Notes: generated by a model not told the origin, from the sequence alone. A stretch of DNA of 64,000 bases from an uncultured Latescibacterota bacterium (GCA_951812545.1 OX638317.1:2297848-2361847), one strand, 5' to 3'; positions 33,482 to 49,738 are shown, counted from the stretch's first letter. Made by a program: numbers and translations.

Positions 33482-33607
33482 GTGTCACACCTTAGTTAAA
33501 AGAAAATGTCGTGGACTGATTGAAACGGGCGACCTTCTGATCGACGGCAGCTGGATTTGGATTTTGTGGATAATAATCAGGAATTTCTGTGCCCTTCCTC
33601 ATTGAGG

Positions 33608-34414
33608 TCATCCCTCTTCGAAATCTGGAAAATAGACCGCTGGATTGTTCGCGTCACTCAGATGCTTTCGCTCGTTGCCCCAGTTGTCTGCTGTGCCGTT
33701 CCAATATCGGGTGTCGGATGGGGAATATGAGAAAAGGTATGACCAGCGCGACTTGTCGGTGCTGTTGACTGGAGCGCCATGGATTGTGTACCCGTGATGC
33801 ACTGTGCAATCACCTGGCTGGTAATGGAAGGGTGGAGAAAGCTCCAGCACAGACGTCAGATTTGGAAATTGCTCGAGCAGGTCGCCCTGGCCATCGCCGC
33901 CTACCGAGCCAAGCGGTCCTTCGCGATGCGAGCGACTGACGAATCGCATCGCACTCATCTCTGGTGTCACTTCCGCCAGCGCAAGCCAGAATTGGAGCTC
34001 GCCCACGCGATCAGAGCCGTGCTGTGACGAGTCCTGATGATAATGGGTTCTGGCTGCCCCTGGGGGCTTTTCTCTTATGACGTCAGCGCGATAACGAAGT
34101 GGGATATCTACGCCCTTGAGCCGCTTCCTATTCACGAGTCGCATCGCGTTTTTTGACATGCGTTCGCTGAACATGAACGAGCGAAACGGCTCAGCCTCTT
34201 CCTGCAGTACCAGACCAACGGCCCGTCTGCCGCCCTTGTCTTCGCCGTAGCGTTCCAGCCACTCCTGGCCGACAGTCAGGAGCTCCGCCACGAACTCCGG
34301 ATCTACGAGCTCCTTCATCATGACCCACCCGTATTCCTGGTAGAAAGCCACTTCTTCGTCTGTGACCTCTCGAACGACGGCTTCGATCTCGCGCTCTGTC
34401 AATGCTTGTCCCAT
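33608..34414 (-). CDS. PhyH-like dioxygenase, paralogue A1
   Basis: I chose the start at MGQALTEREIE (ATG 34414, preceded by GGAGGAG). It has YHQDS and a distal TVHHGYTIHG. It is about 85% identical by eye to 35207..36001. Confidence 0.7.
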   Translation of the reverse strand: MGQALTEREIEAVVREVTDEEVAFYQEYGWVMMKELVDPEFVAELLTVGQEWLERYGEDKGGRRAVGLVLQEEAEPFRSFMFSERMSKNAMRLVNRKRLKGVDIPLRYRADVIREKPPGAARTHYHQDSSQHGSDRVGELQFWLALAEVTPEMSAMRFVSRSHREGPLGSVGGDGQGDLLEQFPNLTSVLELSPPFHYQPGDCTVHHGYTIHGAPVNSTDKSRWSYLFSYSPSDTRYWNGTADNWGNERKHLSDANNPAVYFPDFEEG

Positions 34415-34463
34415 AACCTGTGCTCCTCCAGTGTCGTGTTCCATCAAAATCCCCTTGAATCTC

Positions 34464-35189
34464 CTAACCAAATGACGCCAGAGGATCTGGAATGAGCGCA
34501 CAATGCTCGCCCAACCGCTCGCGAATATCCTGCGTCAAAGAGCCTGCAATTTCATATTGAGGCGCAGTTTTTGGACAACTGTAGCCCATATGGATCACGC
34601 GCCTGGGCGATTTTGAAAGGTTTGCTCGTGCGCCATGCCAGACGTCACCGTGGCAAAAAATGCCAGTTCCAGCCATACAGGTCGCGTAGATTTCTCCAGC
34701 AACTGCCTCTTTGAGATCGTCCAGAATATCTCGGGGCCAGGGTTTTTTATGCGATCCCGGCACAATACGAGTCGCACCGTTTTCTTCTGTCATATCATCA
34801 AGTGCCCACACCACATTGAGGTATGCAGTACAATTCTTAAAGAACGATCGATCGGCATGGATTGCCTGAAGAGGACGCGGGTCACCGGGCATGGGATCGT
34901 GAAAATTCATAGCCTGCCAGCGCATATCCTCTCCAATCACCAGCCTGGCCATTTCCAATGTAATCGGCTCGATTGCCAGCTCTTCGAAGACGCGGCCTTT
35001 GCCAATGAGATTACACAACCTGCGAACGCCCGGAGGGGTCGATCCTTCTGTCCCTGCCTTTTCGCCTTCCAGATCATATCTCTTTTCCAGAGCCTCTCGC
35101 AACGCTGCCAATCGTTGCAGAGAGAGCACATTTTCAACGACCAAATAACCGTGTTCTTGAAAAAAATCCCATTGTTGCACAGAAATCAT
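34464..35189 (-). CDS. PhyH-family dioxygenase
   Basis: This is a 241-aa ORF. It has the N-terminus FQEHGYLVVENVL, the motif IHADR and DVWHGARAN. Confidence 0.75.
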   Translation of the reverse strand: MISVQQWDFFQEHGYLVVENVLSLQRLAALREALEKRYDLEGEKAGTEGSTPPGVRRLCNLIGKGRVFEELAIEPITLEMARLVIGEDMRWQAMNFHDPMPGDPRPLQAIHADRSFFKNCTAYLNVVWALDDMTEENGATRIVPGSHKKPWPRDILDDLKEAVAGEIYATCMAGTGIFCHGDVWHGARANLSKSPRRVIHMGYSCPKTAPQYEIAGSLTQDIRERLGEHCALIPDPLASFG

Positions 35190-35206
35190 TTCAATTCCCT
35201 GAAACC

Positions 35207-36001
35207 TTATTCGGAAAAATGGACCGTTGGATTGTTCGGGTCACTCAAACGCTTCCGCTCGCTGCCCCAGTTGGCTGCGGTGCCGTTCCAGTATCGCGTG
35301 TCAGAAGGGGAGTATGAGAAGAGGTATGACCAGCGCGGCTTGTCGGTGCTGTTGGGGGGACCGCCATGGACTGTGTATCCGTGATGCACAGTACAGTCGC
35401 CCGGCTGATAATGGAACGGCGGAGAGAGCTCCAGCACAGACGTCAGATTTGGGTACTGTTCGAGCAGGTTGCCCTGGTCATCTTTGAATACCGAGCCAAG
35501 CGGTCCTTCGCGATGTGAGCGGCTGACGAATCGCATGGCACTCATCTCTGGTGGCACTTCCACCAGTGCAAGCCAGAACTGGAGCTCGCCCACGCGATCA
35601 GAGCCGTGCTCTGATGAGTCCTGATGATAAGTGGCTCCGGCTGCCCCCGGGGGCTTGTGTTGGAGGATGTCGATGCGATAGCGAAGTGGGATATCTACGC
35701 CCTTGAGCCGCTTCCTGTTCACGAGTCGCATCGCGTTCTTTGACATGCGCTCGCTGAACATGAACGAGCGGAACGGCTCGGTCTCTTCCCGCCGCGCCAG
35801 GCCGACGGCCCGTCTGCCGCCCTTCTCTTCGACATTGCGTTTCAACCACTCTTGACCAACGCGCAGGAGCTCCGTTGCGAACTCCGAGTCCACGAGTTGC
35901 TTCATCATGACCCACCCGTATTCGTGGTAAAAAGCCACTTCTTCGTCTGTGACCTCCCGGACGATCGATTCGATTTCACGCTCCGTCAATGCTTGTCCCA
36001 T
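35207..36001 (-). CDS. PhyH-like dioxygenase, paralogue A2
   Basis: I chose the start at MGQALTEREIE (ATG 36001, preceded by GAAGGAG), which avoids overlap with 36060..37253. It is a near-duplicate of 33608..34414. Confidence 0.7.
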   Translation of the reverse strand: MGQALTEREIESIVREVTDEEVAFYHEYGWVMMKQLVDSEFATELLRVGQEWLKRNVEEKGGRRAVGLARREETEPFRSFMFSERMSKNAMRLVNRKRLKGVDIPLRYRIDILQHKPPGAAGATYHQDSSEHGSDRVGELQFWLALVEVPPEMSAMRFVSRSHREGPLGSVFKDDQGNLLEQYPNLTSVLELSPPFHYQPGDCTVHHGYTVHGGPPNSTDKPRWSYLFSYSPSDTRYWNGTAANWGSERKRLSDPNNPTVHFSE

Positions 36002-36059
36002 AACCTGTACTCCTTCAATAGAGTGTCCCTGAACAGGATGACATACTGATCTCTCGTAT

Positions 36060-37253
36060 CTAACGAATATGTTTGTGTACCTTATCTCTGACGCGGCACA
36101 GATTTTCATCCAATTCGGCGATTTCAGAAGAACCATAGGGATCTGTTGCGCGTTCATAGATTTCCTTGTTGGCCTCCCTCACGGCATCCACGAGCCCGGG
36201 CTTTGGGTTGCCGTCCCAGTCGTACAGGCCTTCCATCATGCCGGACATTTTCATCAACGGACCGTCATCAAGATCGTACAGAGTCGCGCAAAAATTGACG
36301 CCGCACACGTTCGAGTCTCGCAAGTGGCGGTCGAGCAGCAAGCCGTAGATGCGGCCTTTGTGTTCGGACGTCACACTGCGCGGATTCTGGCGTGACGCTT
36401 CAAAAATATGGCCTGACTCCTCGTCAGATACCAGCACAGACCTGCCCGTTGCTGCACTCTGTTCGGCAAAACTGATGTCGCGGTTAAAGTGCTGGGGCGA
36501 AAGCATATCGACATAAGGCGTCAAAGCCTCCCACGTTTTCAGGTCAAAGGACTGCTCCTTGACATAAGGTCCGAGGATCAGGTGGTTGGGATCATGCCGG
36601 CGTATCGCATCGTAGATCATGCGGTACATGTGAACCGCCATTTTGCGGATATTCTCCTGCTCTGGTGCTTTGCTGTCGAGCGACGGTATTGAATTGATCC
36701 AGTTCTCCGGTCTGATGAAGGTGCCGAAACCATAGTAGTATCCCATCATCAACGGATCATCGGCGTACCGCGAGCAAACATCGGCTACCAACTCTTCTAC
36801 CCACTCCTGGTAAGCAGGGGCGAAGATATCTGGTCGTTCCTGACCTTCCGGCAACTCGTTGGGATGAGGGATCAGGAAGAGTCCGGCAGCGTAGGGGAAA
36901 GATTCGCGGCGAAACAGCGCCACCACCTTCTCGACATCGACATAGCCCTTGGGGTCCCGACACTGGCTCGTCGCGCCTGCGAGTGCGCAGTTAAACCCGA
37001 GCGCGCGTATCTGGCCGAACCACTTTTCAATCCACGCATCCTTGTCGCCGTCGTAAAGCTTTTGCACGGTCGGCTGACTGTTCCCGGTGTAGATATGGGA
37101 CAGCGACACGGGGAAAAAGGCGTTGCCCTCGGGTGTGATGAACCATCTGCGCCCGTCCAGTTCCTCGAGATGGAACCAGCCGGTGCTTTTTCCCTTCAGT
37201 TCGGTTGTGCCGCCGTACGAATCAAGTGTATGTGTCATGGGTTTTGCCTCCAT
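36060..37253 (-). CDS. Putative TIM-barrel glycoside hydrolase-like protein
   Basis: This is a clean 397-aa ORF. The N-terminal segment (GWFHLEELDGRRWFITPEGNAFF) is typical of clan GH-A-like enzymes. It is the first gene of the long minus-strand catabolic cluster. The family assignment is uncertain. Confidence 0.5.
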   Translation of the reverse strand: MEAKPMTHTLDSYGGTTELKGKSTGWFHLEELDGRRWFITPEGNAFFPVSLSHIYTGNSQPTVQKLYDGDKDAWIEKWFGQIRALGFNCALAGATSQCRDPKGYVDVEKVVALFRRESFPYAAGLFLIPHPNELPEGQERPDIFAPAYQEWVEELVADVCSRYADDPLMMGYYYGFGTFIRPENWINSIPSLDSKAPEQENIRKMAVHMYRMIYDAIRRHDPNHLILGPYVKEQSFDLKTWEALTPYVDMLSPQHFNRDISFAEQSAATGRSVLVSDEESGHIFEASRQNPRSVTSEHKGRIYGLLLDRHLRDSNVCGVNFCATLYDLDDGPLMKMSGMMEGLYDWDGNPKPGLVDAVREANKEIYERATDPYGSSEIAELDENLCRVRDKVHKHIR

Positions 37254-37305: not shown

Positions 37306-37385
37306 CCACATTTCTCACGCAGATACGACCTCAAAGGCCGTGATGCAGTCTGTGTCTGGTCATATTATGCACCTTTTTCTTTTGA

Positions 37386-37447
37386 TATTTGCAATTTACT
37401 CGAAAAAACAGGGGCTTGCAATGGCAATTTGGAGTATAAAGATTATT
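37386..37447. repeat. 62-bp direct repeat, copy 1 (toxin-stub-like)
   Basis: TATTTGCAATTTACTCGAAAAAAC... matches 38005-38066 at 56/62 positions with no indels. One frame reads ...FAIYSKK..., which resembles the C-terminus of Gp49/HigB-type toxins. Confidence 0.85.
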
Positions 37448-37613
37448 GCAAAAATCAGTGGACAAAAGATCTATACGAATTGCCCAACTGATGGGTGTAT
37501 CTGTTCGAACATTGCAAGACTGGGAGCAGGACCGCCGTCGTCCGTCGGGTGCAGCCCGGACACTACTGATGATCGCAGACAAAAATCCTCAAGCGATATT
37601 GGATGTAATGTGA
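37446..37613 (+). CDS. Small HTH antitoxin-like protein (XRE/COG2944-type), possibly a remnant
   Basis: The frame reads ...IAQLMGVSVRTLQDWEQDRRRPSGAARTLLMIADKNPQAILDVM*. This is the classic xxLGVSxxTLQxWEQGRRxPSGxAxxLL pattern. Only a TTG start (37446) is available and there is no clear RBS. Confidence 0.45.
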   Translation: MQKSVDKRSIRIAQLMGVSVRTLQDWEQDRRRPSGAARTLLMIADKNPQAILDVM

Positions 37614-37656
37614 GAACCTGATTGAGTTGATCCCCAATTGACGTGAGGGCATCGGT

Positions 37657-37893
37657 TTAAGAAAAAAGAACGAGTAGAGAATTATAATATTCTTTACCCG
37701 TTTTCTTTTTGCCAGACAGCGTTTGGCAAATCGGTTGTTGAGGGAATTGATCAAATTCTCCAGACAATGTCTGGAGAATTTCGCTGAGTTCTGATTTTTC
37801 AGACAGTGTCTGAAGAATTTGTACAGGTGGATACGATTGGTAGAACAGATGCGCTCGCAATGCAGTATTCAACAATTTTGTTTGCGATCTCAT
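37657..37893 (-). pseudogene. DUF1016/YhcG-type PD-(D/E)xK nuclease N-terminal fragment
   Basis: This is a 78-aa ORF reading ...LRAHLFYQSYPPVQILQTLSEKSELSEILQTLSGEF.... It matches my recollection of the FYxxYP...QTxSxKSE...xQTxSGxF repeat in DUF1016 N-termini. The nuclease domain is absent. Confidence 0.4.
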
Positions 37894-38004
37894 CCAAAAG
37901 CGATTCTGTTATTTTTTGTTCTTTCGCATTCATACCCTGAGTATTTCCGCGCAGTCGAACCGAGCGAATCGCCCATCCGTTTTTTGCATATAATGATAAA
38001 TGCC

Positions 38005-38066
38005 TATTTGCAATTTACTCGAAAAAACCGGGGCTTTCAAGGTCATTTTTGAGTATAAAGATTATT
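38005..38066. repeat. 62-bp direct repeat, copy 2
   Basis: See 37386-37447. Here the toxin-like frame (...RIAHPFFAYNDKCLFAIYSKKPG...) ends at the TAA at 38074-38076. Confidence 0.85.
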
Positions 38067-38080
38067 ATACTCAAAATTTA

Positions 38081-38114
38081 AGACCAATCAGATAGCGATA
38101 CTGATTGGTCTTTT
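38081..38114. terminator. Bidirectional rho-independent terminator-like hairpin
   Basis: The hairpin is AGACCAATCAG-atagcgata-CTGATTGGTCT, an 11-bp perfect stem. It is flanked by AAAATTTA on one side and TTTT on the other. It lies about 65 nt downstream of the 1262-aa gene stop. Confidence 0.55.
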
Positions 38115-38178: not shown

Positions 38179-41100
38179 TCAATAGAGAAGTCTCTTCCTG
38201 ACCTCTGCTTCGGAATCCCACCTCTCGGCATCGCGCTCGTAAGATGCGGCGACGGCCTCGAGGACCCTTCCAACAAAGGGATAGTCGAAGAGCAAGTGCT
38301 CGGCCCAAGCTCGGTATTTCGCAACGAGTTCGTGTTCTTGTTTGCCCCCTTCCTCCCGCTTATGAACGCCGCGAGAGTTGCGAATGCCGCTATAAAATCC
38401 CTCGCCGATTATCGTCGATGCTATCCCTTCTATCGCCTCGCAGACCTCTTCACAGGGCCAGATGCCATTCTTGCCAGCGGGTGCCTTGGCAAGCAGTTCA
38501 CCGATGCAATGATCCCCAATATCGGCGCGGGCGTAATTGCGGCACAGTTGCCGAACCTCAGAGATCCACGCGGCGAGTACGTGTCCATCGATCCTTCCGT
38601 CATCATTTGTACCAGGAATCTTCGTTATTTCGTTGAGAAGGAGATACGCTCCCGATCCGGCTGCCTCCCGTTGCTTGGGATCCTCGATTCTCCATTCCGG
38701 CGGGTCCTCTCCTTCGTCACTCCTTTTGTACATAAGTGCCATCACACGGGCAAAAAACGCTGGTGATTCCGTGATCTGGTTTTCGAGATTCGGGATTCCA
38801 TGCTGGCTGTACTCAAGGGGGTTGATGAACATAAATTCGAGTTCAGCCATTTCATCACGGGTGACGCCCGGGCGGCTATCAAGCGAATCCAGTGCTTCGG
38901 AAATGGAGTAACCTTCGGGCGGGTAATGGCCTTCCGGTTCAGCATTAACTGTGACAACTTCGCGCAAAAGTTTCTTGAGACGGGCCGTCTCGATATCCTT
39001 GAAACTCATTTGGACAGCGTGGAAAGCCGCACGCGGTCGCCGGACCTCCCGAAGACAATCAATCAGTTCGGTAAGTTCGGCAGGCGTGTACCGGATCACT
39101 GATGGGGAGACATTCCTCCAGTACTCGGATCGGGTATCCTCGCCATAGTCGTCCAGAAAACGCCAGGTGGATGCCTGGAACGGCGCACATACAAATAGCC
39201 GCACGCGGGCAGCGGACAACTCCTTCGCCGTAGCTTGCAACACCCCAGCGCGCGAGTCCTCCTCGATCGAGACAAGAAAACCCTGCAAGCACTGCTCAGC
39301 CTTACTCTGGAAGTCCCCGTCAAGTGAAAGGCAACACTTGATGAAATCGATCTGAGACTTCACATCGGTAACGCACGACGACATGTAATGGCCGACGATT
39401 TCGGCGGCACCACTGTCTGCAAGCAATTTCTTAACACCCTGAAAACCGCACTCTGTCCATATCTCGGTCATCGCATCGCGGCGCAGTCTGTCGATCCGCT
39501 CTACGTGCTTCTGATGGTCGAAATCTTCTTCTTCGATTTCGTCAGCCAATTCCCGCACCCACGGATTGGCGAACAGCCATCCATGCTTTATGACTGGATC
39601 GTGGGGACGGAGGCTCTCATAAACTTCACGGGTACGGGCGCGGGTCGCTTCTCCAAGTTTCTGGCGGCCCAGCCGAGAAAAGGCGGAGCATCGGATGCGC
39701 TCGCGCAGCACGGCCTTAGCGGATTCAGTGGCGTTCTGGGACCATTCCTGAATCAGGTCCCAAACCTTGGTCTGGTCTTTTTCCACCATACGAGAGAGAG
39801 ACTCTATGAGATCGCCAAGGGTTTTTTCGTCGTGAGACGGCCAAGCAATCAGCAAGTCCAGAGCCTTTCGTTCGAAGTCGTATATCTCCTTGCGTGTGAC
39901 AACCTGTCCGGCACCTGAGGCGTCACTACGCCAGCGGGGTCTGTAGCTAGGGAAGCCTGTTCGGGAACCCGGCTGGATCTGCGCGATGCAGATCGCCCAG
40001 CCAATATCCGGGAAACGTTTGATCAGAATTTCGAGCACCTTAACTCTCTCCCTCACCGAAGCTGCCGTCTGCGGCATCCATGATCTGAAGATGTCCTGAA
40101 GACTATCGCCCGGTTTATTCATCCAGTTGTCGTTTATTTTTTGCTGAGAGAGTTGGGCGAGGATTAACGATACGCGCGAGAGGTTTTGCGGTTTCCAAGC
40201 AAGATACTCCAACGCCCGGAGAAGGCCCGTTCTCGACAGTGCCAATAACGAACCACTGTCAACCGGCTTGAGAAGGATAAAAACAATAGGATCTTTGCTC
40301 TGTAAATCTTCTTCAATGAGGTTCAAAAATACACTGGGCGCGGCTTCTGCGAAGCGCGGCAGGTCGTAGTCGTGGGAGAGTAATTTTTCAAGCGTCAGCG
40401 GCGTTAGGAGTCTTCTGATCAGACCTTCGACTCGGCCTTCGACATTGATACCGAGGCGACTCTGGAATAGGTCGTTGCCGTGGACCGAGAGGATGACGAG
40501 GGTATCACAGATACTCTCGCGCAACGCGTTGGAGTAGTTGCGTTTCTTGCCGCGCAGGGCCGCGGCCCACCGTTCTTCTTCTGCGAGTTCAAGTGTCGGA
40601 TCGGACTCGGAAAGGACGTATTTGGCGGCGGTGAAGAACCGGTCGAGGTCCGCTGATATGACCCTCCTCGCTATTGCAAACAAGGCGTCAATCTTGGAGG
40701 TAACACCGTGGAACCGTCCGGAAGACCACACCGGGCTGTCATCGAACTCAAGTAGGCGCGCGACGTCGTCTTCGATCTCCTCGTAATTTCGATTCGCCAC
40801 GCAGGAGACAATCTCGCGATCCGCCTCCGATTCTGCGTGCCAAGTACCAACCATGGCCACCGGCACGAGGTCTTTTGCCGTTTTATCATCGCGTGCCCAT
40901 TCCGGCATTTTGATTGCGGCATTCTCCGAGAGGCGACGGCGCAAGATCGTTGGTGATCGGCCCGATTCCCTTGCAAGACGCTCAATTTTATCTCTCTCGA
41001 GTCCCATCGCGGTGAGTGCCTTATTGAAGGCGTCGTAGCCAAGTAAGTCGAGCGTAATATCGGCTTTTGTATCGACCGCGTTGCGTGTACGGAACACGAT

Positions 41101-41967
41101 GCAATGAAGTCGCCGATGGGCGTCACCGAGCTCGCGCTCGGTATCATGGGAATGGACTATCGGGATAAAATTCTCGGAGGACGCAACGAGCGTCTTGAGC
41201 GGCTCTGGAGAAGTGAAGACCGCGGCTCGGTCCTTGTATTGGCGGAGATCTTTGTTATCGAACAGACAGGCAAGAAAGGCGAGCGCCTCGTCCCGCGAGT
41301 CAGCCGCGACGTAAAAAGGCTTCTCACTCGGCTTGTCAAGCCACTCTTTGAACTTGTCCCGGTACACAGCGATCGAGGATGCGAAGATTTCAGGCGTTAG
41401 ATGAGGCTCGCTGGCGTTCGCCCAGCGGTGCCATACCCGTTCCAGCGTTTCATAGCCGCTGGTTGGGTGATTGAGTTGTTCGGCAAGCCAGATCTGCGCC
41501 GGCACCACCTGTTCCAGCCACTGCTCGAGATCGCTTGCGTCGAAAGCTCTGACTCCCTTCCAGTCGCCAGTCTCTTTCTTTTCGTTCTCCCAAGCGGTCT
41601 TACCAGGCCAGTTGCGAGGTGTCACAAAGACAAAGGTGCTATTTGCTCGTTCAGCGGAATCAACCGACTTTAGCCGATTGGAATAATCCGTCTCCGCTTT
41701 GTCACGTGGGTTCTGGTTGGTACCGAACTCCCAATAGGAGACCCCCTCAGGAATCCAAGGGTTGGAAGTGCCAGATGTGACGATACCATCGGGACCCTGG
41801 CGCTGCGCGTTGTCGTAGCCGGGAAAGTCAACTTGATGGAGGTCACGGCCTGTTGAATGAACGAGCTTTCGTAGTAAGACAGGAAGGAGGGTGCGAGCAT
41901 CGATCTGGTCTGCCCAGTTCTTGATCTGGCTTGCCTTGATGGTTAAAAAACTCGGGAGGTTGGTCAT
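38179..41967 (-). CDS. 1262-aa orphan protein: N-terminal nuclease-like module plus a long helical body
   Basis: The frame is clean, with an ATG preceded by GAAGAAGG. There is no Walker A/B motif. Residues 1-170 carry a D60...E80-F-G...K90 pattern that loosely fits an Mrr/PD-(D/E)xK layout. The remainder is helical-repeat-like. An R-N-x4-H motif (IRNSRGVH) lies about 65 aa from the C-terminus. Confidence 0.7.
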   Translation of the reverse strand: MTNLPSFLTIKASQIKNWADQIDARTLLPVLLRKLVHSTGRDLHQVDFPGYDNAQRQGPDGIVTSGTSNPWIPEGVSYWEFGTNQNPRDKAETDYSNRLKSVDSAERANSTFVFVTPRNWPGKTAWENEKKETGDWKGVRAFDASDLEQWLEQVVPAQIWLAEQLNHPTSGYETLERVWHRWANASEPHLTPEIFASSIAVYRDKFKEWLDKPSEKPFYVAADSRDEALAFLACLFDNKDLRQYKDRAAVFTSPEPLKTLVASSENFIPIVHSHDTERELGDAHRRLHCIVFRTRNAVDTKADITLDLLGYDAFNKALTAMGLERDKIERLARESGRSPTILRRRLSENAAIKMPEWARDDKTAKDLVPVAMVGTWHAESEADREIVSCVANRNYEEIEDDVARLLEFDDSPVWSSGRFHGVTSKIDALFAIARRVISADLDRFFTAAKYVLSESDPTLELAEEERWAAALRGKKRNYSNALRESICDTLVILSVHGNDLFQSRLGINVEGRVEGLIRRLLTPLTLEKLLSHDYDLPRFAEAAPSVFLNLIEEDLQSKDPIVFILLKPVDSGSLLALSRTGLLRALEYLAWKPQNLSRVSLILAQLSQQKINDNWMNKPGDSLQDIFRSWMPQTAASVRERVKVLEILIKRFPDIGWAICIAQIQPGSRTGFPSYRPRWRSDASGAGQVVTRKEIYDFERKALDLLIAWPSHDEKTLGDLIESLSRMVEKDQTKVWDLIQEWSQNATESAKAVLRERIRCSAFSRLGRQKLGEATRARTREVYESLRPHDPVIKHGWLFANPWVRELADEIEEEDFDHQKHVERIDRLRRDAMTEIWTECGFQGVKKLLADSGAAEIVGHYMSSCVTDVKSQIDFIKCCLSLDGDFQSKAEQCLQGFLVSIEEDSRAGVLQATAKELSAARVRLFVCAPFQASTWRFLDDYGEDTRSEYWRNVSPSVIRYTPAELTELIDCLREVRRPRAAFHAVQMSFKDIETARLKKLLREVVTVNAEPEGHYPPEGYSISEALDSLDSRPGVTRDEMAELEFMFINPLEYSQHGIPNLENQITESPAFFARVMALMYKRSDEGEDPPEWRIEDPKQREAAGSGAYLLLNEITKIPGTNDDGRIDGHVLAAWISEVRQLCRNYARADIGDHCIGELLAKAPAGKNGIWPCEEVCEAIEGIASTIIGEGFYSGIRNSRGVHKREEGGKQEHELVAKYRAWAEHLLFDYPFVGRVLEAVAASYERDAERWDSEAEVRKRLLY

Positions 41968-42109
41968 GGTTCATGCCTTCTTCAGGATGTGATCTCGATG
42001 GGATGCTGCTCGCCCTGCAATTTCGTCAACTCAATTACGATCAACAGATACAGCAATGCCATGTAGAAACTCCTTTTCTGCTGAGATATTGTCAAATAAT
42101 CTACGGTGT

Positions 42110-43945
42110 TTATCCATTGGCAATGAGCTTCAAGTTATCGGGATTCCAGATTTTTTGCGCTAACAACTGATATAGAGCTTGGCGTTGGTCTAAATCATCT
42201 TTTTTAAAATCGTCATGTGGCTTGAACGCAAGATTAAGCTCGTGTTGCTCCCTGAATTTTTGGAACCCGGGGTTGCGATCATAGGCATTTTTATGCAGAC
42301 TTTGGGCGAGTAGGTTTTGTCCAAAATAGTGTTCGAGCTTTTCGGAATATGGTTTATCACTAAAGCTAGCGTTGAAATCCTTGGGCAGTAGGAGAAGACC
42401 GCCGATTCTGTCACGATATTGCTCAAAATCAACTGGGTGGCTAAATTCATCATCGTGCCGCTCATACTTGTTTGCCCAGATGTGCTCTATTTCGTACCCT
42501 TTGTTATCTCTTTGGTTGTACTCCGCATAGCGGGAGGGTTTGCCTGATCCAGTTTCTACAAAGTCGGTCAGGCGTGCCAATATACGATGAATCTTTGGAC
42601 CATTCTGCTGATTTAATGAGAATGAGTTGTTGTGCATAAATGTTTCTGTATCTTCTGCGAGATGCTTAGTGAGTATCTTGGTTAGATCATCTACAGACTT
42701 TCTTCTTATGCTCCTTATTATCGGAAAAATTTTACCGCGCATGAAACTCTCGGCGGTCGACCTTCCGTTCCAAATGTGGCGCGTGATCAAGATATCAATA
42801 AATGAAGCGACTATACGAAGCTTGAGTTTAATCTCATCTTCGATATCAGTATGTCTAAGTGGTGCCAGCAACAATGGATATTGAAGCGTGAAATTATTAT
42901 TTGCATTGTAATAAATCGGTTCATATCCACCTTTTAGCCTTTCAGCCGCAAGACGAATGAAATTATACCACTTAGCATAAAAATTAAAGTCCTTAAAGAT
43001 GAAACTGAAAAAATCTGTTGGTTGGCGAAGATTTAAATCATTCTCCTGAGATCGGACCCATCGGTGGAACTCTGATCCAATATCTTCGAAGTGACTTATC
43101 TGATCAGCATACTGACTGCGTAGCCAACTCTTGATTGCATCGGCTTCTTCCTCCTTGCCAAGTTCTTGCAACTCAGAAATACGAGACCGCCAAGCATCAT
43201 TGGCATCATTACGCTTGGTAGTATCACTGATATTGGTCAAGAGATATCCTTTAAGCATATCTGTGGGTGTCAGTGAGAGACCACGGTCATTCATAGTCTC
43301 AAAAATGGTGTACGCGTCCTCATCAGAATAAGCAGTGATTTCAACGAGATGGACATTTTCTGTGAGCCAGTCAGCGAAATACGGTAGGGCATCGTTATAT
43401 TCTGATTCGCCATTTTTTACATCATTAGCGAGTGTATCTGGCAGATGAGCCTCAATGTCTTGGTAGCGGTTCAGAATATTGACAACTGACTCAGGTTTAC
43501 CTGCCTCATCAAAAGTATCATCTTGCATAAGTGCGTTCATACATGCAAGGCGTTCTGGAACATTAAGATTGAATGAATGTTCACCATACTGCACTGAAGA
43601 GATCATACTGGTAATTGACTGTCTTGCATCGGCGGGGAGTTGGTGATACAGGCTGATGAGCAGCAGCGTTATAGTTGTAATACGTTGCTGTCCATCGATG
43701 ATGAACTTTTGATTGTCCTTTTCACTGATAATGACAGACCCGAGGAAATAATGCCCGTACTTTTTGACTTCTTTGCGAGCATGGTTAGGATTATAACTGT
43801 CCAAGAATTTTTCGCACAGATCATTAATAAGCTCGATAACCTGTTTTTTTTCCCAGCGATACTCTCGTTGATAATAATCAATGGAAAACTTTTCCTCACT
43901 GAGCATGGATCGGATGTTTTTAGCATCACCGTGTATTTTTTTCAC
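42110..43945 (-). CDS. DUF262-DUF1524 (GmrSD/SspE/BrxU-like) type IV modification-dependent nuclease
   Basis: The GTG start is preceded by GAGAGGTGA. The N-terminal ParB-like DUF262 shows YYQREYRW and IIDGQQRITT. The C-terminal His-Me finger DUF1524 shows YEIEHIWA...IGGLLLLPKDFNASFSDKPYSEK. Confidence 0.85.
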   Translation of the reverse strand: MKKIHGDAKNIRSMLSEEKFSIDYYQREYRWEKKQVIELINDLCEKFLDSYNPNHARKEVKKYGHYFLGSVIISEKDNQKFIIDGQQRITTITLLLISLYHQLPADARQSITSMISSVQYGEHSFNLNVPERLACMNALMQDDTFDEAGKPESVVNILNRYQDIEAHLPDTLANDVKNGESEYNDALPYFADWLTENVHLVEITAYSDEDAYTIFETMNDRGLSLTPTDMLKGYLLTNISDTTKRNDANDAWRSRISELQELGKEEEADAIKSWLRSQYADQISHFEDIGSEFHRWVRSQENDLNLRQPTDFFSFIFKDFNFYAKWYNFIRLAAERLKGGYEPIYYNANNNFTLQYPLLLAPLRHTDIEDEIKLKLRIVASFIDILITRHIWNGRSTAESFMRGKIFPIIRSIRRKSVDDLTKILTKHLAEDTETFMHNNSFSLNQQNGPKIHRILARLTDFVETGSGKPSRYAEYNQRDNKGYEIEHIWANKYERHDDEFSHPVDFEQYRDRIGGLLLLPKDFNASFSDKPYSEKLEHYFGQNLLAQSLHKNAYDRNPGFQKFREQHELNLAFKPHDDFKKDDLDQRQALYQLLAQKIWNPDNLKLIANG

Positions 43946-43988
43946 AGATTCACCTCTCTAAGAATTCTGTTGAAAGCGATATCCTTTT

Positions 43989-44447
43989 TTAAATTTCGTC
44001 TTCGGGTTCAATACCCATCCAACAGAGCAACTCTATTTCGTCCTGATTGATCGGAGGGAGAAGCGGAGGGGGTTCAGTCGGCTCGAGGCCAGTCTCGAGG
44101 ATTTGCTCAATCAGGTAACTTGCGAGTGATGCGCCCTGGTGCTCATCCGATTCGAACCAACCGCGCAGCATGATCTCTTCGCGCCGCGGCCAGGGCGATT
44201 CCAAGATGTCGAGTGCTCGATGCACCCGTTCGTCGGACATATCTAATGGCGGATTGTCGCGGATAAACTCAGCCACGCGGTGGTTCAGTGGACACACCTG
44301 TGACTGTAAGTTCGCGGGAGACGCTTTCTCACAGACTTTCTGGATACTATCTGGACGTGTGTTCTTCACTCTCAATGAGGCGCACGTGACAGGACTTGAG
44401 TTGCCTATTATCAACGGCTGGCACAAAGCGCAGGTACGTGCATGCAA
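43989..44447 (-). CDS. Small hypothetical ORF (up to 152 aa, or 83 aa from ATG 44240)
   Basis: It is open only from a TTG. The first in-frame ATG at 44240 has no RBS. It is noticeably more GC-rich than its AT-rich neighbours. It may be a remnant or a small accessory protein. Confidence 0.3.
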   Translation of the reverse strand: MHARTCALCQPLIIGNSSPVTCASLRVKNTRPDSIQKVCEKASPANLQSQVCPLNHRVAEFIRDNPPLDMSDERVHRALDILESPWPRREEIMLRGWFESDEHQGASLASYLIEQILETGLEPTEPPPLLPPINQDEIELLCWMGIEPEDEI

Positions 44448-44494: not shown

Positions 44495-45607
44495 TCAATC
44501 TACAGGCGCTTCCTCATATTCTGGTGAAATTAGTCCTTCCAAGGCTTCACCAACTGTCTTGAAAAGCGGTAAATCAAGCAGATTCTCTTGTTCACTATGA
44601 GTTGGTGAAGGCAATTGGGCCATTGGCAACTCTTTTTTAGAACCTACAAATATGAACCTCTTTCTCTTTTGGGCACTACCATAATTTGCAGCATTTAAGA
44701 TGCGACTTTCAATATTGTAGCCCAGACTATTCATCTGTTCAGTTATTTCCTTGAGCAAAGAGCCTTTTTCTATTCCCCTTAGATTTGATACATTCTCCAT
44801 TACAAAATAAGGTGGAACTATCTCTTTCAGGAAACGGATAAATTCAAAAATCAACGCTCCCCGAGAATCACTGGTTCCCTTTTGTTTACCTGCTTGACTG
44901 AAAGCCTGGCAAGGGGGACCGCCATAAACTACCCGAATATCTTCGCGGGAGGTTTTGCACTTTTTAAGTAACTGCTCAGGAACAATTTCTGAAATATCCG
45001 CATTAAACACTGCCACTTTATCTTTGAAATACCCCTTTAGCGTATCGCAACGGTCTTTTTCAATTTCAACACAGGCTGTCGGCTCAAAATGACTCCCATC
45101 ATCCCCAAATTCTACACTCTCAGCAGCTATATCTAATCCTCCAGCTCCACTAAATAAACTAAGTGTCTTGAAAGTTTTCTCTTGCGGCCAGTGTTTCTTC
45201 AGAGAGATCATTAATGATTTAAATATGGCCTTGCCGAGTTCGATTGGCACGGCATCTCCAACCTGACTCTGAACACTGGTCAGAGACCCCTTAAATTCAA
45301 TATCATCTGGAAATCCCTGTAATCGTGCAGCTTCCCTCGGCGTGATAAATCGATTCTCATGAGGGTGAACAAATTTATTAAAAATATAACCCGTTACTGT
45401 TAAAGAAGGTTGGCTCGGATCAAGTCTTATGATGCGCAGATTAGGGCCTCCCTTGCGAGTAGGATCTTCTTTAACATAGTAACGAAAACTTTTATGCCAT
45501 AGTTCCTCTGGCAGATCCTGCATTTTCTGACCGATACCCAGCGCATTGATCCGTCGTTGGACCTCTATTCCAACTCTGCGAGGTTGATGATTAAAGACTT
45601 CCAGCAC
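44495..45607 (-). CDS. DNA (cytosine-5)-methyltransferase, circularly permuted motif order
   Basis: The GTG start is preceded by GAGGAG. Motifs IX/X (REAARLQGFPDD at residues 91-102, GDAVP at 117-121) come before motif I (FSGAGG, 152-157). Motif IV (PPCQ, 231-234), motif VI (ENV, 271-273) and motif VIII (QKRKR, 313-317) follow. Confidence 0.88.
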   Translation of the reverse strand: MLEVFNHQPRRVGIEVQRRINALGIGQKMQDLPEELWHKSFRYYVKEDPTRKGGPNLRIIRLDPSQPSLTVTGYIFNKFVHPHENRFITPREAARLQGFPDDIEFKGSLTSVQSQVGDAVPIELGKAIFKSLMISLKKHWPQEKTFKTLSLFSGAGGLDIAAESVEFGDDGSHFEPTACVEIEKDRCDTLKGYFKDKVAVFNADISEIVPEQLLKKCKTSREDIRVVYGGPPCQAFSQAGKQKGTSDSRGALIFEFIRFLKEIVPPYFVMENVSNLRGIEKGSLLKEITEQMNSLGYNIESRILNAANYGSAQKRKRFIFVGSKKELPMAQLPSPTHSEQENLLDLPLFKTVGEALEGLISPEYEEAPVD

Positions 45608-45622
45608 GGTCTTCTCCTCATA

Positions 45623-46897
45623 TTAAAAAGTAAATGTCGATCTGATCCATTCATCACGGGCCGAAACCTCAATTAAAGAAACAATACCATCAACGAGATT
45701 AAACAGCCTTGTATCCGGAGGCAAATCCTTAGCACGTCTCACAGTCCCCGATTCATCCCTTGTCCAAATTATATCTTTTAGTGCACTCATATACGCCTCA
45801 AAATGTCTAACCGCCGGAATATTTGTTACAATACCCACTTTGTAGTCAAATTTATATGCAGGCTTTCCTTCTGCGCCGATTTTCAGTACTTGATATGTCG
45901 CTTTTTTAAGATCATCCGTTCTATCCATACCCACACTCGTTTTACCATCAGAAATTGTCTCATAACCTATCCTCGGCCTCTTTGGCCAATCATCTGGTCT
46001 TGGATCAGGAGATCCACAGGCATTGGTAAACCAATATGGGAAATTTTTCTTACGCGTACCATAGCATTCAAAAGCGTCCTTCCAGAATCGAAAATAACTT
46101 TCAAGAAACGTGGAATCTAAGTTTAAGAGGTTGAGAAGTCCATCATATGCCCACGCTGTATCATTCTTTTCTTTTTTTATTCCCAACGGAAAAATGTGAC
46201 CATCCCAAATATTTTCATCTTGTTTGTAAATTGGCAAATATATTCCAATTTCAGAACCATAAAGTCCTGTGTGATCAGTCTCTCTATGGGATACGGTCTC
46301 TGTTAAATAATCTATCTCTTCGGTTAATTCTTGTGTCTGAACGACCAACGGCAATGTACAAAGCGGAGCAGCTTTAACCTCAGCGAAAAAGACCACTTCA
46401 GAGTCTAATGAATGATCTTGAAAAATCAAATCTACCGGCTCCGTTCCCCGTTTTATCTCAATGGATAAGCCTTTCCGATGAAACATTTCAGCCCAAAAAA
46501 GAGCTAAAAGTCTTGAAGTTGTCGCACCAATGGATCCAGACTGAGGTTTATTGGCTTTATGAAACACAAACTGATCTTTGAGTAAACATCTTGAGCAGGC
46601 ATTAATATATGGATAGAGTAAAAGCGGAGATTCTCCTTCTGGGCAATAAACCCATCCCACGTGAGCAACAGAGCCATAATATTCTGCTGCAACGAGAAGA
46701 TCAAAAGCCGCTGCCAAATGAAGGGGTTTTTCTCTTATATCAGACCTCAGACTAATTTCGTCTAATAGCTTAATTATCAAAGATTTTTCTACTTTCTCCG
46801 AATGAAATGGCTTTGTCCGGCTGAGAATTTCTTTAATCCAAGTATCGCCATCAGGATGTGGGGCAGTAGAAGAAAATAGACCGATTTGTTTAGACAT
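45623..46897 (-). CDS. Putative type II restriction endonuclease (PD-(D/E)xK)
   Basis: This is a 424-aa ORF that ends 15 nt upstream of the MTase start. A candidate catalytic motif is P154-V-D156 ... E173-V-K175 (EPVDLIFQD...FFAEVKAAP). Confidence 0.55.
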   Translation of the reverse strand: MSKQIGLFSSTAPHPDGDTWIKEILSRTKPFHSEKVEKSLIIKLLDEISLRSDIREKPLHLAAAFDLLVAAEYYGSVAHVGWVYCPEGESPLLLYPYINACSRCLLKDQFVFHKANKPQSGSIGATTSRLLALFWAEMFHRKGLSIEIKRGTEPVDLIFQDHSLDSEVVFFAEVKAAPLCTLPLVVQTQELTEEIDYLTETVSHRETDHTGLYGSEIGIYLPIYKQDENIWDGHIFPLGIKKEKNDTAWAYDGLLNLLNLDSTFLESYFRFWKDAFECYGTRKKNFPYWFTNACGSPDPRPDDWPKRPRIGYETISDGKTSVGMDRTDDLKKATYQVLKIGAEGKPAYKFDYKVGIVTNIPAVRHFEAYMSALKDIIWTRDESGTVRRAKDLPPDTRLFNLVDGIVSLIEVSARDEWIRSTFTF

Positions 46898-47096
46898 AAA
46901 TCACCCATCAAAAGGTTAAAGATTACGACAATTTACGAATATATTATACTACACGTTAGTTCACGTATCAAGACCAAAAACTTACTGATTCAAAACCCGT
47001 AACGATGGAAAAGGCCCGAAACTGGCTTAGAGAGCACGGCCAAATCCTCGAGCAGGATATCTGACGAGGATATTCAACCCCATCGACTATAGAACA

Positions 47097-48431
47097 TCAC
47101 AAGCGATTGCTCCGCATTTGATGGAGTTCTTGCGCAACTACGTCAAACGGTAATTTAAAAAAGTTGAACTGCCCATAGAGCCTTTGTAGAAGGGGATGAA
47201 GAACCTCAGCAAGATTGTCTTGTATCTGTTGCTGAGTGATCTGCCCCGTTAATATGACTTCATCTGTACTAATGGGATAGGCCCCAGAGAGTAATCGTTC
47301 TGAGTGCTGATGCCCCGTTTCAAGAAATCGCCCCTTCAGCCCCGTAAAACGGCAGTGAAGAGCAATTTGATCAACCTCTTCGAATGTTTCCGCAAAGCGG
47401 CTTGCAAATAACAATCCCTCGCCAATACGCCAAATCGGTAAAGGGATATAAAACGCACGACCAGGAGTAATGTCCCGTCTATCTTCAAGGTATCCGCGGA
47501 TGGTGTAGAGTTTTCCATCGAGAGAAGCCCGCCAGAAATCGCAAATGTGCGGATTTCCAGATGTCTGTCTATAGTATGGTCGCCCAAGCCATGATTCTAC
47601 AAAAACATCCAAAGGATATGGCCTCAATTCTGAGTTTTGTATCTCCAAGAATGGTGTCCATCCCGACAATTTGACCTGTCTCGCGATACTAAGCCGATTT
47701 CGAAGTTCGTCAAAGCCACTCATCGGTGTCGCTTCGACTAAAGAAAAAGCCATCTCGTAGTAGCCGTGCGGAAATCTCGCTGGAGAGTCATCAGGCGCAT
47801 CTAACACCAATTCCTCCCAACGATCATGGGCTGCGGTGGAGTAATCTCGGAGATCTTCAAGTACACTTGGCCTTGAGTCTTGCAGTTCTACGCGCCCCGT
47901 CATAATTGAGCGAATCGCTTCCAGCATATCGTCTCGGTTAGCCCTCAAGCAGCGATTAAACAAATTACGCCATTCTTCTGATGTCCGAGGTTCCTCGCTT
48001 TCTGGACCTGGCTTTCGAATATAGCAACGGTTTAGGGCAATGACTCCTGGACACTGGTTCTTGCTCATCACAGGTACAGTAACCGTGCCGGGGACAATGA
48101 CTACTGGATGCGACACACTCGTATCTGGGTGCAATACATTGTACATCTCACAGTGAAACCTTGGCTCGGCATATCGGCGTATTGCCGCGTTTACAGAGTC
48201 TTGTGTGATCTCGGGTATTTCCTTCGGACATGGCCCTGACACAAGGGTTTGGCCCTGATCTGCAAAGCCAATGACGATGCGCCCACCACCATGGTTGGCC
48301 AATGCGATCGCGGCCTTCGCGAGTGTTGCCCTATGCTTGTTATTCGTCAGATCTAACCAATCCTTGTACTCAGCATCAAGGTCTTCTCTCGGTTCAGTAA
48401 TAAACGGCTGTAGTTCTTCGATTGAAGCCAT
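47097..48431 (-). CDS. Schlafen/AlbA_2-domain protein with an uncharacterised C-terminal domain
   Basis: I chose the start at MASIEELQ (ATG 48431). The N-terminus (REDLDAEYKDWLDL...AAIALANHGGGRIVIGFADQG) fits the AlbA_2 consensus (E-x-L-E-F-K ... NT-GG-x-IxxG). There is no HATPase or wHTH tail. Confidence 0.7.
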   Translation of the reverse strand: MASIEELQPFITEPREDLDAEYKDWLDLTNNKHRATLAKAAIALANHGGGRIVIGFADQGQTLVSGPCPKEIPEITQDSVNAAIRRYAEPRFHCEMYNVLHPDTSVSHPVVIVPGTVTVPVMSKNQCPGVIALNRCYIRKPGPESEEPRTSEEWRNLFNRCLRANRDDMLEAIRSIMTGRVELQDSRPSVLEDLRDYSTAAHDRWEELVLDAPDDSPARFPHGYYEMAFSLVEATPMSGFDELRNRLSIARQVKLSGWTPFLEIQNSELRPYPLDVFVESWLGRPYYRQTSGNPHICDFWRASLDGKLYTIRGYLEDRRDITPGRAFYIPLPIWRIGEGLLFASRFAETFEEVDQIALHCRFTGLKGRFLETGHQHSERLLSGAYPISTDEVILTGQITQQQIQDNLAEVLHPLLQRLYGQFNFFKLPFDVVAQELHQMRSNRL

Positions 48432-48637
48432 ATTTACCCTTCTTTGGATTCTGTACAACCTGGTAATCAATCATCTGTAATAGGTTCTGCGACCACTGTG
48501 GATACATGCATACGGCTTGTCTGGACCACGCGCGATGGAAGCCGCGCGAAGCAAAGCACAAGGGCACCGTACGCACTCCGGTGGCGCGAGATAACGGAGA
48601 TTTCGTTAGAGGGCGGGGCAGGTGGTGGTCGTGGGAC

Positions 48638-49738
48638 CTACGAGGGATCAGACCCACACTCTCGGCAGGGTTGCTCTTCCTGCTCCAAGAGCTTAACCAC
48701 TGATGACGCGACCCAACGATCTGAAACTTGTAGCTGCCGCCAATCTGTAGACGACTGTGGTTGGACCTTTATTTGACTACAATCGTTCTCGTGGATCACC
48801 GCCAACGCTTCATCAAAAACGATAATCGCGGGCGATGGGGCCATTGCTGCCTCGGCGGGGACAATGACCCCCGCTCCCGGCTCTAGTGTCCTCGCGACAT
48901 CGGCGATCATCTCCGGACTGACGGACGCGACAGCGAGCCCCATCTCCAATGAATGCGGGTTTATCTCGATCTGCATATTATTCAGGTGCTGCACTAAGTG
49001 GATTACATTATTGGCCGTGAGGCTCAAGTTACCCCGTTGGAGACCTAAGACATTGACCAAAGTCTTACCGTTTTGGAAGAAGTCATCTTCGGCTTTCTTA
49101 CTACGATGAATGATCCAATTCCTGAGTAATCGCCACTCCCCCATCAGGTCAGCTTTTACATGGTGGGGGTCCACTTTCATGGCAGATGCGATCTTCGGTC
49201 GAATGGTCTCTTCCCACAGGTGATACGTAGAGACGACAAATGAGTTGGCATAGAGACGCTCGAAGTCGCCAGCATCGGCGATCGACTCGATAACTTCCTC
49301 CGCAGGCATCTCAGCGAGCACAGCGGCCTCTCTGCCGTCCGGGCGCAATGTAGTGACTCTAAGAGGCTCGCCTCGGCTGGCTAGGCGCTCTAGGTGTTCC
49401 CGCATAGCCGTTCGACTAGCCATGATGCCCACAAACCAGGTCGTCATCATCTGGCACTCTCGCGAGAACATCCGCATTGCGCTGTCGATTTCATCCTTAG
49501 ATTCGTTGCTGACCGGCGGTATACCCGTGTACATGAGAGTCAACATACCACTAGGCAAACCTATTTGGCGCATCACCGTAGCAGGTGATATGTCTCCTCC
49601 AATCCAGGTCCATTTTGTGCTCTTGCCGTCGCCACAATCAGGACATGCAATGGCGGGGCTTCCCTTTTCGAAGTCGTGTGTATGCCCACAGTCGGCACGA
49701 TAGGTACCTGGGAAAGAAAATTTTTTGCTGTCTGACAC
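48638..49738 (-). CDS. Zn-ribbon protein with a HEPN-like R-N-x3-H motif
   Basis: The GTG start is preceded by a strong AAAGGAGGGGG RBS. The N-terminal segment CGHTH...CPDCG (C17/H19, C32/C35) is ribbon-like. The central motif is EWRLLRNWIIHRSK (R206-N-W-I-I-H211). There is a C-terminal CRECG. Confidence 0.55.
   Translation of the reverse strand: MSDSKKFSFPGTYRADCGHTHDFEKGSPAIACPDCGDGKSTKWTWIGGDISPATVMRQIGLPSGMLTLMYTGIPPVSNESKDEIDSAMRMFSRECQMMTTWFVGIMASRTAMREHLERLASRGEPLRVTTLRPDGREAAVLAEMPAEEVIESIADAGDFERLYANSFVVSTYHLWEETIRPKIASAMKVDPHHVKADLMGEWRLLRNWIIHRSKKAEDDFFQNGKTLVNVLGLQRGNLSLTANNVIHLVQHLNNMQIEINPHSLEMGLAVASVSPEMIADVARTLEPGAGVIVPAEAAMAPSPAIIVFDEALAVIHENDCSQIKVQPQSSTDWRQLQVSDRWVASSVVKLLEQEEQPCRECGSDPS

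Follow-up and report, generated by a model that had tools for sequence, protein, structure and literature searches.

Receptors of the STAND/NLR type are thought to rely on a switch driven by nucleoside triphosphates (NTPs). The closest described counterparts of the gene reported here are the antiviral STAND (Avs) proteins, especially Avs8 and the nuclease-headed Avs3 and Avs4, single large polypeptides in which an N-terminal nuclease precedes a central STAND fold with helical and winged-helix elements and a C-terminal helical-repeat sensor, and whose genes lie in defence islands and on plasmids. We analyzed a stretch of 64,000 nucleotides from an uncultured Latescibacterota bacterium (GCA_951812545.1 OX638317.1:2297848-2361847; hereafter, the window), in which an intact open reading frame (ORF) on the minus strand (38179..41967, with the stop codon at 38179–38181), confirmed by the ORF list and by translation, encodes a protein of 1262 residues. 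This protein is likewise a single large polypeptide with the same predicted succession of domains, and its homologues are also found in defence islands and on plasmids. From conservation, structural models and analogy with Avs, we propose with moderate confidence that the large gene encodes a stand-alone, nucleotide-independent, Avs-like immune sensor-nuclease of a very large uncharacterised family, and we regard it as a good candidate for a new family of single-gene phage defence.

An alignment of 67 sequences with 37–88% identity was used both for conservation counts and for AlphaFold2, and models of residues 1–420 (predicted local distance difference test score, pLDDT, 90.8) and 401–1262 (pLDDT 85.7) were searched with Foldseek. 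The models divide the protein into the three parts of an Avs receptor: an effector (residues 1–170), a STAND-like module (residues 215–420) and a solenoid (residues 421–1262). The predicted domain order of the family as a whole is a HigA-type helix-turn-helix (HTH) domain, lost in the clade of the window protein, a PD-(D/E)xK nuclease domain, a STAND/AAA+ module without a P-loop, a helical and winged-helix region, and a HEAT-like solenoid of ∼840 residues. A preliminary description of the window, made from its sequence alone, held that this layout could not be mapped to a named system. However, a STAND-derived module joined to a HEAT-like sensor is an Avs-like layout and can, therefore, be assigned to a kind of system already described.

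The central module consists of a parallel-sheet α/β core of STAND/AAA+ type (residues 215–300; 41068..41325, minus strand), followed by helical and winged-helix-like elements to approximately residue 420 (residues 301–420; 40708..41067, minus strand), which carry a conserved RESGRSPTILRRRL motif. The best structural matches to the model of residues 1–420 in the PDB are Avs4 and Avs3 (8dgc), which occupy ranks 1–4 with Avs4 (8dgf) at the top (E = 5e-5, probability 1.00), and AVAST5 (9nc9) is within the best six. Further matches include ATAD2, CED-4, Apaf-1, Dark, the NB-ARC domain of NRC1 and RFC/AAA+ clamp loaders, and a search of BFVD returned the same two fold classes as that of the PDB. The alignments to Avs4 and Avs3 are collinear and include residues 301–420.

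Despite this fold, the nucleotide-binding motifs are gone. Strand β1 (FYVAA) leads directly into the sequence xADS, followed by helix α1; xADS replaces the P-loop in all 67 aligned sequences, none of which has a glycine or lysine in the β1–α1 loop. Column counts over the same sequences place a histidine or alanine followed by a serine, rather than Asp or Glu, in the Walker B slot after β3. Other positions of the module are strongly conserved: Ser224 and Glu277 are invariant (67/67), Arg293 is kept in 66 of 67, and Leu342, Arg343, Arg344 and Leu346 are invariant in the aligned homologues. A Walker A motif was found at the homologous position in none of 389 members, and any G....GK[ST] pattern in only 10 of the 389, at scattered, non-homologous places, in agreement with the preliminary description, which had seen no Walker A or B motif. 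A profile of residues 4–420 was also searched against a library of 1.84 billion representative proteins; no P-loop-bearing relative is present among the best 150 of the 4053 matching clusters, and, as these 150 all belong to the same family, they provide no bridge to active STANDs. On the models, what the preliminary description called a giant non-NTPase scaffold is more aptly seen as a module of STAND origin from which the P-loop has been lost (residues 215–420), with a HEAT-like sensor after it.

Erosion of this kind has parallels among described systems. KpAvs8, a member of the group formerly known as PD-lambda-4 and now called Avs8, has degenerate Walker motifs (PMC13581612). Such degeneration is seen in a few Avs proteins, whereas Walker A is absent in every member of the present family that was examined. 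The PADLOC model PD-Lambda-4_A matches the window protein weakly but collinearly (residues 540–649 against model positions 562–663 of 1283), and this match recurs in the sensor region of 12 of 27 diverse members (E = 2.9e-4 to 0.1). The iSTAND, iSTAND2 and BrxB proteins contain inactive STAND modules and belong to conflict systems (Kaur et al. 2020 and 2021, PMC7159879 and PMC8195603; BREX preprint, 10.1101/2025.10.09.681413). They share with our family the eroded NTP-binding motifs in a STAND fold, with a proposed role in sensing or assembly, but each is one component of a multi-gene system (a MoxR-vWA ternary system or BREX), whereas the family protein is solitary and is fused to its own nuclease. 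Among 289 ORFs flanking the homologues, there was one AAA_3 match and no recurrent MoxR, vWA or BREX gene. Upx is similar in being a single-gene defence with a large unannotated sensor, a divergent PD-(D/E)xK nuclease and no working NTPase; it differs in that its nuclease is C-terminal, its sensor is rich in β-structure and it has no STAND fold. Signature peptides of the family were not found in part of the supplementary tables of a 2026 preprint presenting a census of STAND proteins, which suggests, though weakly, that the family escaped the census.

The N-terminal domain (residues 1–170; 41458..41967, minus strand) is predicted with a pLDDT of ∼90–97 to have the α-β-β-β-α-β core order of the restriction-endonuclease fold, with helices at residues 24–39 and 87–101 and strands at residues 43–47, 61–65, 75–81 and 110–115. 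Foldseek matched it to FokI, EcoT38I and phage or viral restriction endonucleases (probability 0.80–0.99). Asp60, Glu80, Lys90, Asp94 and Arg98 are kept in 67 of 67 homologues and Asp47 in 66; of these, Asp47, Asp60, Glu80 and Lys90 are the candidate catalytic residues. The suggestion of a PD-(D/E)xK-type head built around Asp60, Glu80 and Lys90 is thus supported by fold and conservation, and this region is plausibly a nuclease of that type. A helical linker, defined by the secondary structure of the model, connects it to the STAND-like module (residues 171–214; 41326..41457, minus strand).

The remaining ∼840 residues (residues 421–1262; 38182..40707, minus strand) are modeled as a HEAT/ARM-like α-solenoid, the presumed sensor. 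It is nearly all helical, with only two short strands at its low-confidence N-terminal end, and is matched by CAND1, importin-β, SF3B1 and karyopherins (E of ∼1e-5 to 1e-4). The preliminary description had assigned more than 1000 residues after residue 170 to helical repeats; the repeat character stands, whereas the length does not, as residues 215–420 form the STAND-like module. It had further pointed to an R-N-x4-H motif, IRNSRGVH, near the C-terminus as having the shape of a HEPN active site; on such a reading, a C-terminal HEPN RNase would be an effector alongside the N-terminal nuclease. This peptide is present in the window sequence. However, Arg1196 is found in only 28 of 67 homologues and His1202 in 25, and what is conserved here is Asn1197, Arg1199 and Gly1200, part of a C-terminal patch of the solenoid (N1197-S-R1199-G1200 ... 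E-G-G-x-Q). Since the motif residues are not conserved, a HEPN active site is unsupported; the region, moreover, belongs to the solenoid model and a Pfam scan finds no HEPN family. We, thus, give virtually no credence to a HEPN effector.

The protein had been called an orphan, which proved incorrect. A word-indexed search returned ∼3000 homologous clusters at 90% identity, and the 4053 clusters obtained with the profile are clusters at 50% identity, 2287 of them with E ≤ 1e-30. A scan that covered each GTDB species with one genome yielded 329 matches, among them members from Latescibacterota, Alpha-, Beta-, Gamma- and Deltaproteobacteria, Firmicutes, Cyanobacteria, Acidobacteriota, Nitrospirota, Chloroflexota, Planctomycetota, Gemmatimonadota and Binatia, and the family overall spans more than 12 phyla. 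Members from cultured strains are found on plasmid pS19502 of Shewanella baltica OS195, in Rhizobium tropici CIAT 899 and in Cupriavidus metallidurans CH34; family proteins of the first two species include WP_012197948.1 (S. baltica) and WP_004118204.1 (R. tropici). The claim that no named family is recognisable did hold: the whole 1262-residue protein has no match in Pfam or NCBIfam, residues 4–420 of 17 diverse members received no annotation from Pfam, NCBIfam or PADLOC, and PADLOC v2 names no system for the large protein beyond the weak match to PD-Lambda-4_A.

Nearly all members are ∼1350–1370 residues long, with a very uniform architecture, and their match to the window protein begins near residue 93. 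The additional ∼90 residues are an N-terminal HigA-type HTH_3 domain, because of which most homologues are named “HigA family addiction module antitoxin” or “HTH transcriptional regulator” in the databases. The closest relatives of the window protein, from Latescibacterota metagenome-assembled genomes (MAGs) with 83–88% identity, share with it the loss of this domain through an in-frame deletion. The window protein is a further 11 N-terminal residues shorter than these relatives (window 41935–41967, MTN-LPSF compared to MTTLSDTHHHHDDFIPSF) and, therefore, begins right at the nuclease domain.

The HTH domain gives rise to two other readings of the family. In the first, the protein is a fused addiction element of the toxin-antitoxin kind, in which a HigA-type antitoxin or repressor is joined to a nuclease toxin and stabilizes plasmids or islands rather than protecting against phage. 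The HigA-type domain at the start of most homologues and its annotation are in keeping with this, as is the occurrence of a solitary gene on conjugative plasmids, which seems to move as a single gene. However, the domain makes up only ∼7% of the protein in the homologues that carry it, and HigA antitoxins of type II HigBA systems have a HigB partner, whereas no HigB-like or other small ORF recurs upstream of the HTH-bearing homologues in a survey of 80 loci. The conserved body of 1260 residues, with its STAND-like module and 840-residue solenoid, far exceeds what a toxin needs, and the clade of the window protein has dispensed with the HTH while remaining under purifying selection. We, therefore, consider an addiction element improbable.

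This last argument rests on the ratio of nonsynonymous to synonymous substitutions (dN/dS), which is 0.30–0.40 in the window's clade, measured against the closest relatives, and 0.07–0.31 elsewhere, with a peak in the C-terminal third. The value for the window's clade, therefore, indicates purifying selection rather than a pseudogene, and the pattern is consistent with a functional gene whose constraint is somewhat relaxed. The possibility of a pseudogene was rejected on this ground and because the ORFs are intact.

The second reading is a STAND-type transcription regulator that responds to a signal, similar to MalT/LAL, in which the nuclease fold would serve as a non-catalytic module for DNA binding or dimerisation. 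STAND regulators with repeat sensors exist, most members have the HTH, and several are named “helix-turn-helix transcriptional regulator” by NCBI. The N-terminal HTH also has a candidate operator. Two copies of the gene in one Rhodospirillales MAG (L083 and L087) are 94.7% identical in nucleotide sequence from −115 to the stop codon and share an inverted repeat, TGTAT-N16-ATACA, ∼100 bp upstream of the gene. Because this repeat is conserved upstream of some homologues, the ancestral HTH probably autoregulates transcription, a function that the window's clade would have given up. On the other hand, the acidic and lysine residues of the nuclease fold are invariant, which is unexpected if the domain is inactive, clades without the HTH persist, and no conserved regulated operon adjoins the gene. 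A regulator as the principal function is, thus, also unlikely in our estimation.

The surroundings of the gene were surveyed in the 80 homologous loci, with fetched flanks of up to 10 kb on each side, and the flanking ORFs were scanned with Pfam and PADLOC. No neighbour family is conserved, and the adjacent genes differ in size, strand and spacing. The largest neighbour cluster, with 8 ORFs drawn from 7 loci, seems to represent type I restriction-modification subunits, judging from Methylase_S as the commonest Pfam family among the neighbours. The flanking ORFs include type I S and M subunits, MmeI/Eco57I, type ISP and type IIG enzymes, DUF499/DUF1156, Abi_C, AbiEii-like AAA_21, AbiEi, McrBC, Uma2, PIN and toxin-antitoxin genes, resolvases and transposases, together with ordinary metabolic genes. 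One annotated island with a homologue contains a ubiquitin-like system and TIR, RmuC and HEPN-MNT genes, and a Rhizobium plasmid region combines a homologue with RT-SLATT and Shedu. The defence-island setting proposed earlier is, thus, supported by restriction-modification, Abi, toxin-antitoxin and transposase genes among otherwise variable neighbours.

M78 peptidase genes lie next to homologues at 5 of the first 40 loci scanned, a hint that XRE-type HTH domains may be controlled by proteolysis at some loci. In L009, a Peptidase_M78 gene (9084–9920; ImmA/IrrE, CapP-like) stands directly upstream of a family member without the HTH. In a deltaproteobacterial lineage (L001–L008), a 445-residue protein with a DACNV domain (PF21751) is encoded ∼158 bp downstream of the homologue and is not conserved elsewhere.

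What is conserved and transferred is the large gene by itself. When loci of distant taxa are compared, their homology in DNA extends no further than the ends of the ORF or ∼70–120 bp upstream. Homologues are carried by 25 plasmid records (typed as conjugative in 12 cases, mobilizable in 5 and non-mobilizable in 8), and by a single phage record, in which the homologue is partial. At the window locus, a leader of ∼70 bp (41968..42036, minus strand), which carries a GAAGAAGG motif resembling a ribosome binding site, moves with the gene: homology to two other Latescibacterota loci, L010 and L012, begins at window positions 42036 and 42011, respectively, although the upstream genes differ.

One of these differing genes encodes a GmrSD type IV restriction enzyme of 611 residues (42110..43945, minus strand; GmrSD_N, E = 4e-34; GmrSD_C, E = 2.5e-9), which also matches the type IV, HEC-06, Orf5 and SspE-like models of PADLOC. 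The preliminary description had proposed that this DUF262-DUF1524 gene and the large gene form a two-gene defence module. The two genes are indeed on the same strand with a gap of only 142 bp, and a consensus scan of this spacer for terminator-like sites likewise found none. Downstream of the large gene, the strong terminator noted earlier corresponds to a hairpin at ∼38080–38112 (minus strand; 12-bp stem, dG −17.6 kcal/mol, z −4.3), the stem of which is followed by a U-run/UUAAAUUUU. With the ORF, the upstream GmrSD gene, the unbroken spacer, the hairpin and the lack of Pfam and NCBIfam matches all verified, the physical observations of that description were, therefore, correct.

The proposed linkage, however, is not conserved. 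A BLASTP search of the ORFs called across the fetched flanks identified GmrSD at 0 of the 80 homologous loci, the sole match being a weak one (28% identity) to a 267-residue ORF resembling the N-terminal part of DUF262 in L063, and no neighbour cluster of any other kind recurs. The window flanks are 95–96% identical to those of the Latescibacterota MAG L010, which places the window in that group. Both L010 and L012 have the large gene with no GmrSD at that position, and window positions 42037–44074 are an insertion relative to L010 that holds GmrSD only. The GC content of the GmrSD gene is 0.414, compared to 0.549 for the large gene, and GmrSD enzymes are known to function on their own. A second insertion relative to L010 (window 44495–48470) contains a type II restriction-modification pair and a Schlafen/AlbA_2 gene, and both insertions sit in a locus where the large gene otherwise keeps the same leader. 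From the insertions and the contrast in GC content we, therefore, conclude that GmrSD came to lie beside the large gene by accident, in this strain only, at a defence-island hotspot, and that the two do not form a module; a two-gene system is, accordingly, highly improbable.

The type II pair of the second insertion (44495–46897, GC 0.40–0.42) consists of a C5 cytosine methyltransferase (Pfam DNA_methylase, E = 2e-66) and a 424-residue REase_II (PADLOC, E = 2.6e-103), and is absent from this place in L010. The 457-residue protein encoded at 47097–48470, also specific to the window, has a Schlafen AlbA_2 domain (E = 3e-9); a recent report describes Schlafen proteins of bacteria as effectors of phage defence (PMC13056530). 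Two ORFs of 152 (43989–44447) and 366 (48638–49738) residues have no family matches; they are 90–96% identical in nucleotide sequence in L010, where their different order shows rearrangement within the island.

Several observations weigh against an Avs-like immune receptor or set the family apart from Avs. The STAND assignment comes from Foldseek alignments whose extent over several domains keeps their TM-scores low (0.2–0.3), and no significant sequence or profile match was found to the PDB, to Pfam (including NACHT and NB-ARC) or to the AVAST/Avs models. In the nuclease head, the lysine slot of the ExK motif is occupied by Gly82, with Lys90 10 residues beyond Glu80 in the next helix; since this lysine lies outside the canonical (D/E)xK spacing, nuclease activity is plausible at most. 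The sensor departs from that of Avs in being HEAT-like and unusually conserved, the sequence identity of 47–88% across phyla is higher than is usual for an immune sensor, and the ancestral form of the family, in contrast to Avs, has an N-terminal HigA-type HTH. The defence setting was judged by counts of neighbouring Pfam families alone, and some contexts resemble housekeeping regions, for example, that of Paenibacillus (L090). With these points included, the models and conservation are best described by a P-loop-less, ancestrally HTH-fused variant of Avs/STAND-type receptors with a HEAT sensor. The proposal of an undescribed defence component is, thus, reasonable once the orphan status, the HEPN site and the two-gene module are removed from it.

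Avs3 and Avs4 suggest, by analogy, a possible mechanism, in which the C-terminal solenoid would capture an invader molecule, such as a phage protein or possibly a nucleic acid, and this binding would lift autoinhibition. The degenerate STAND module could then drive oligomerisation without a nucleotide switch, bringing together the N-terminal nuclease domains, which would cut DNA so that the phage is stopped or the cell is killed (restriction or abortive infection). More tentatively, the protein may be the founding example of a very abundant class of STAND-derived immune receptors (at least 4000 clusters at 50% identity) that lack a nucleotide switch and in which capture by the solenoid directly assembles the nuclease; the built-in HTH would add a second layer of control, acting by autorepression or, at loci with a neighbouring M78 peptidase, by release through proteolysis. 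We consider this extended proposal possible, although somewhat doubtful.

Other features of the window lie further downstream of the large gene. Immediately beyond it, an AT-rich segment (37345–38112) is a repeated element, with several copies of 82–96% identity in related Latescibacterota (L009 17228–18194, 18888–19014 and 23121–23834; L010 14680–14930). The L009 copies lie on either side of small NTP_transf_2 (MNT-like) genes, and the element may be a cassette or a repeat resembling a miniature inverted-repeat transposable element. Four successive paralogues of the PhyH (phytanoyl-CoA dioxygenase) family follow at 32285–36157 (minus strand), in synteny with L012.

If the Avs-like reading is correct, receptor logic of the STAND type can run without an NTP switch, and a huge, uniform family retains the fold together with its effector head and sensor tail. 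A widespread single-gene candidate would be added to the catalogue of defence systems. Current annotation sees only the 90-residue HTH, and the names “HigA antitoxin” and “transcriptional regulator” are misleading for proteins of ∼1350 residues. As members are present in cultured strains, the idea is open to direct testing.

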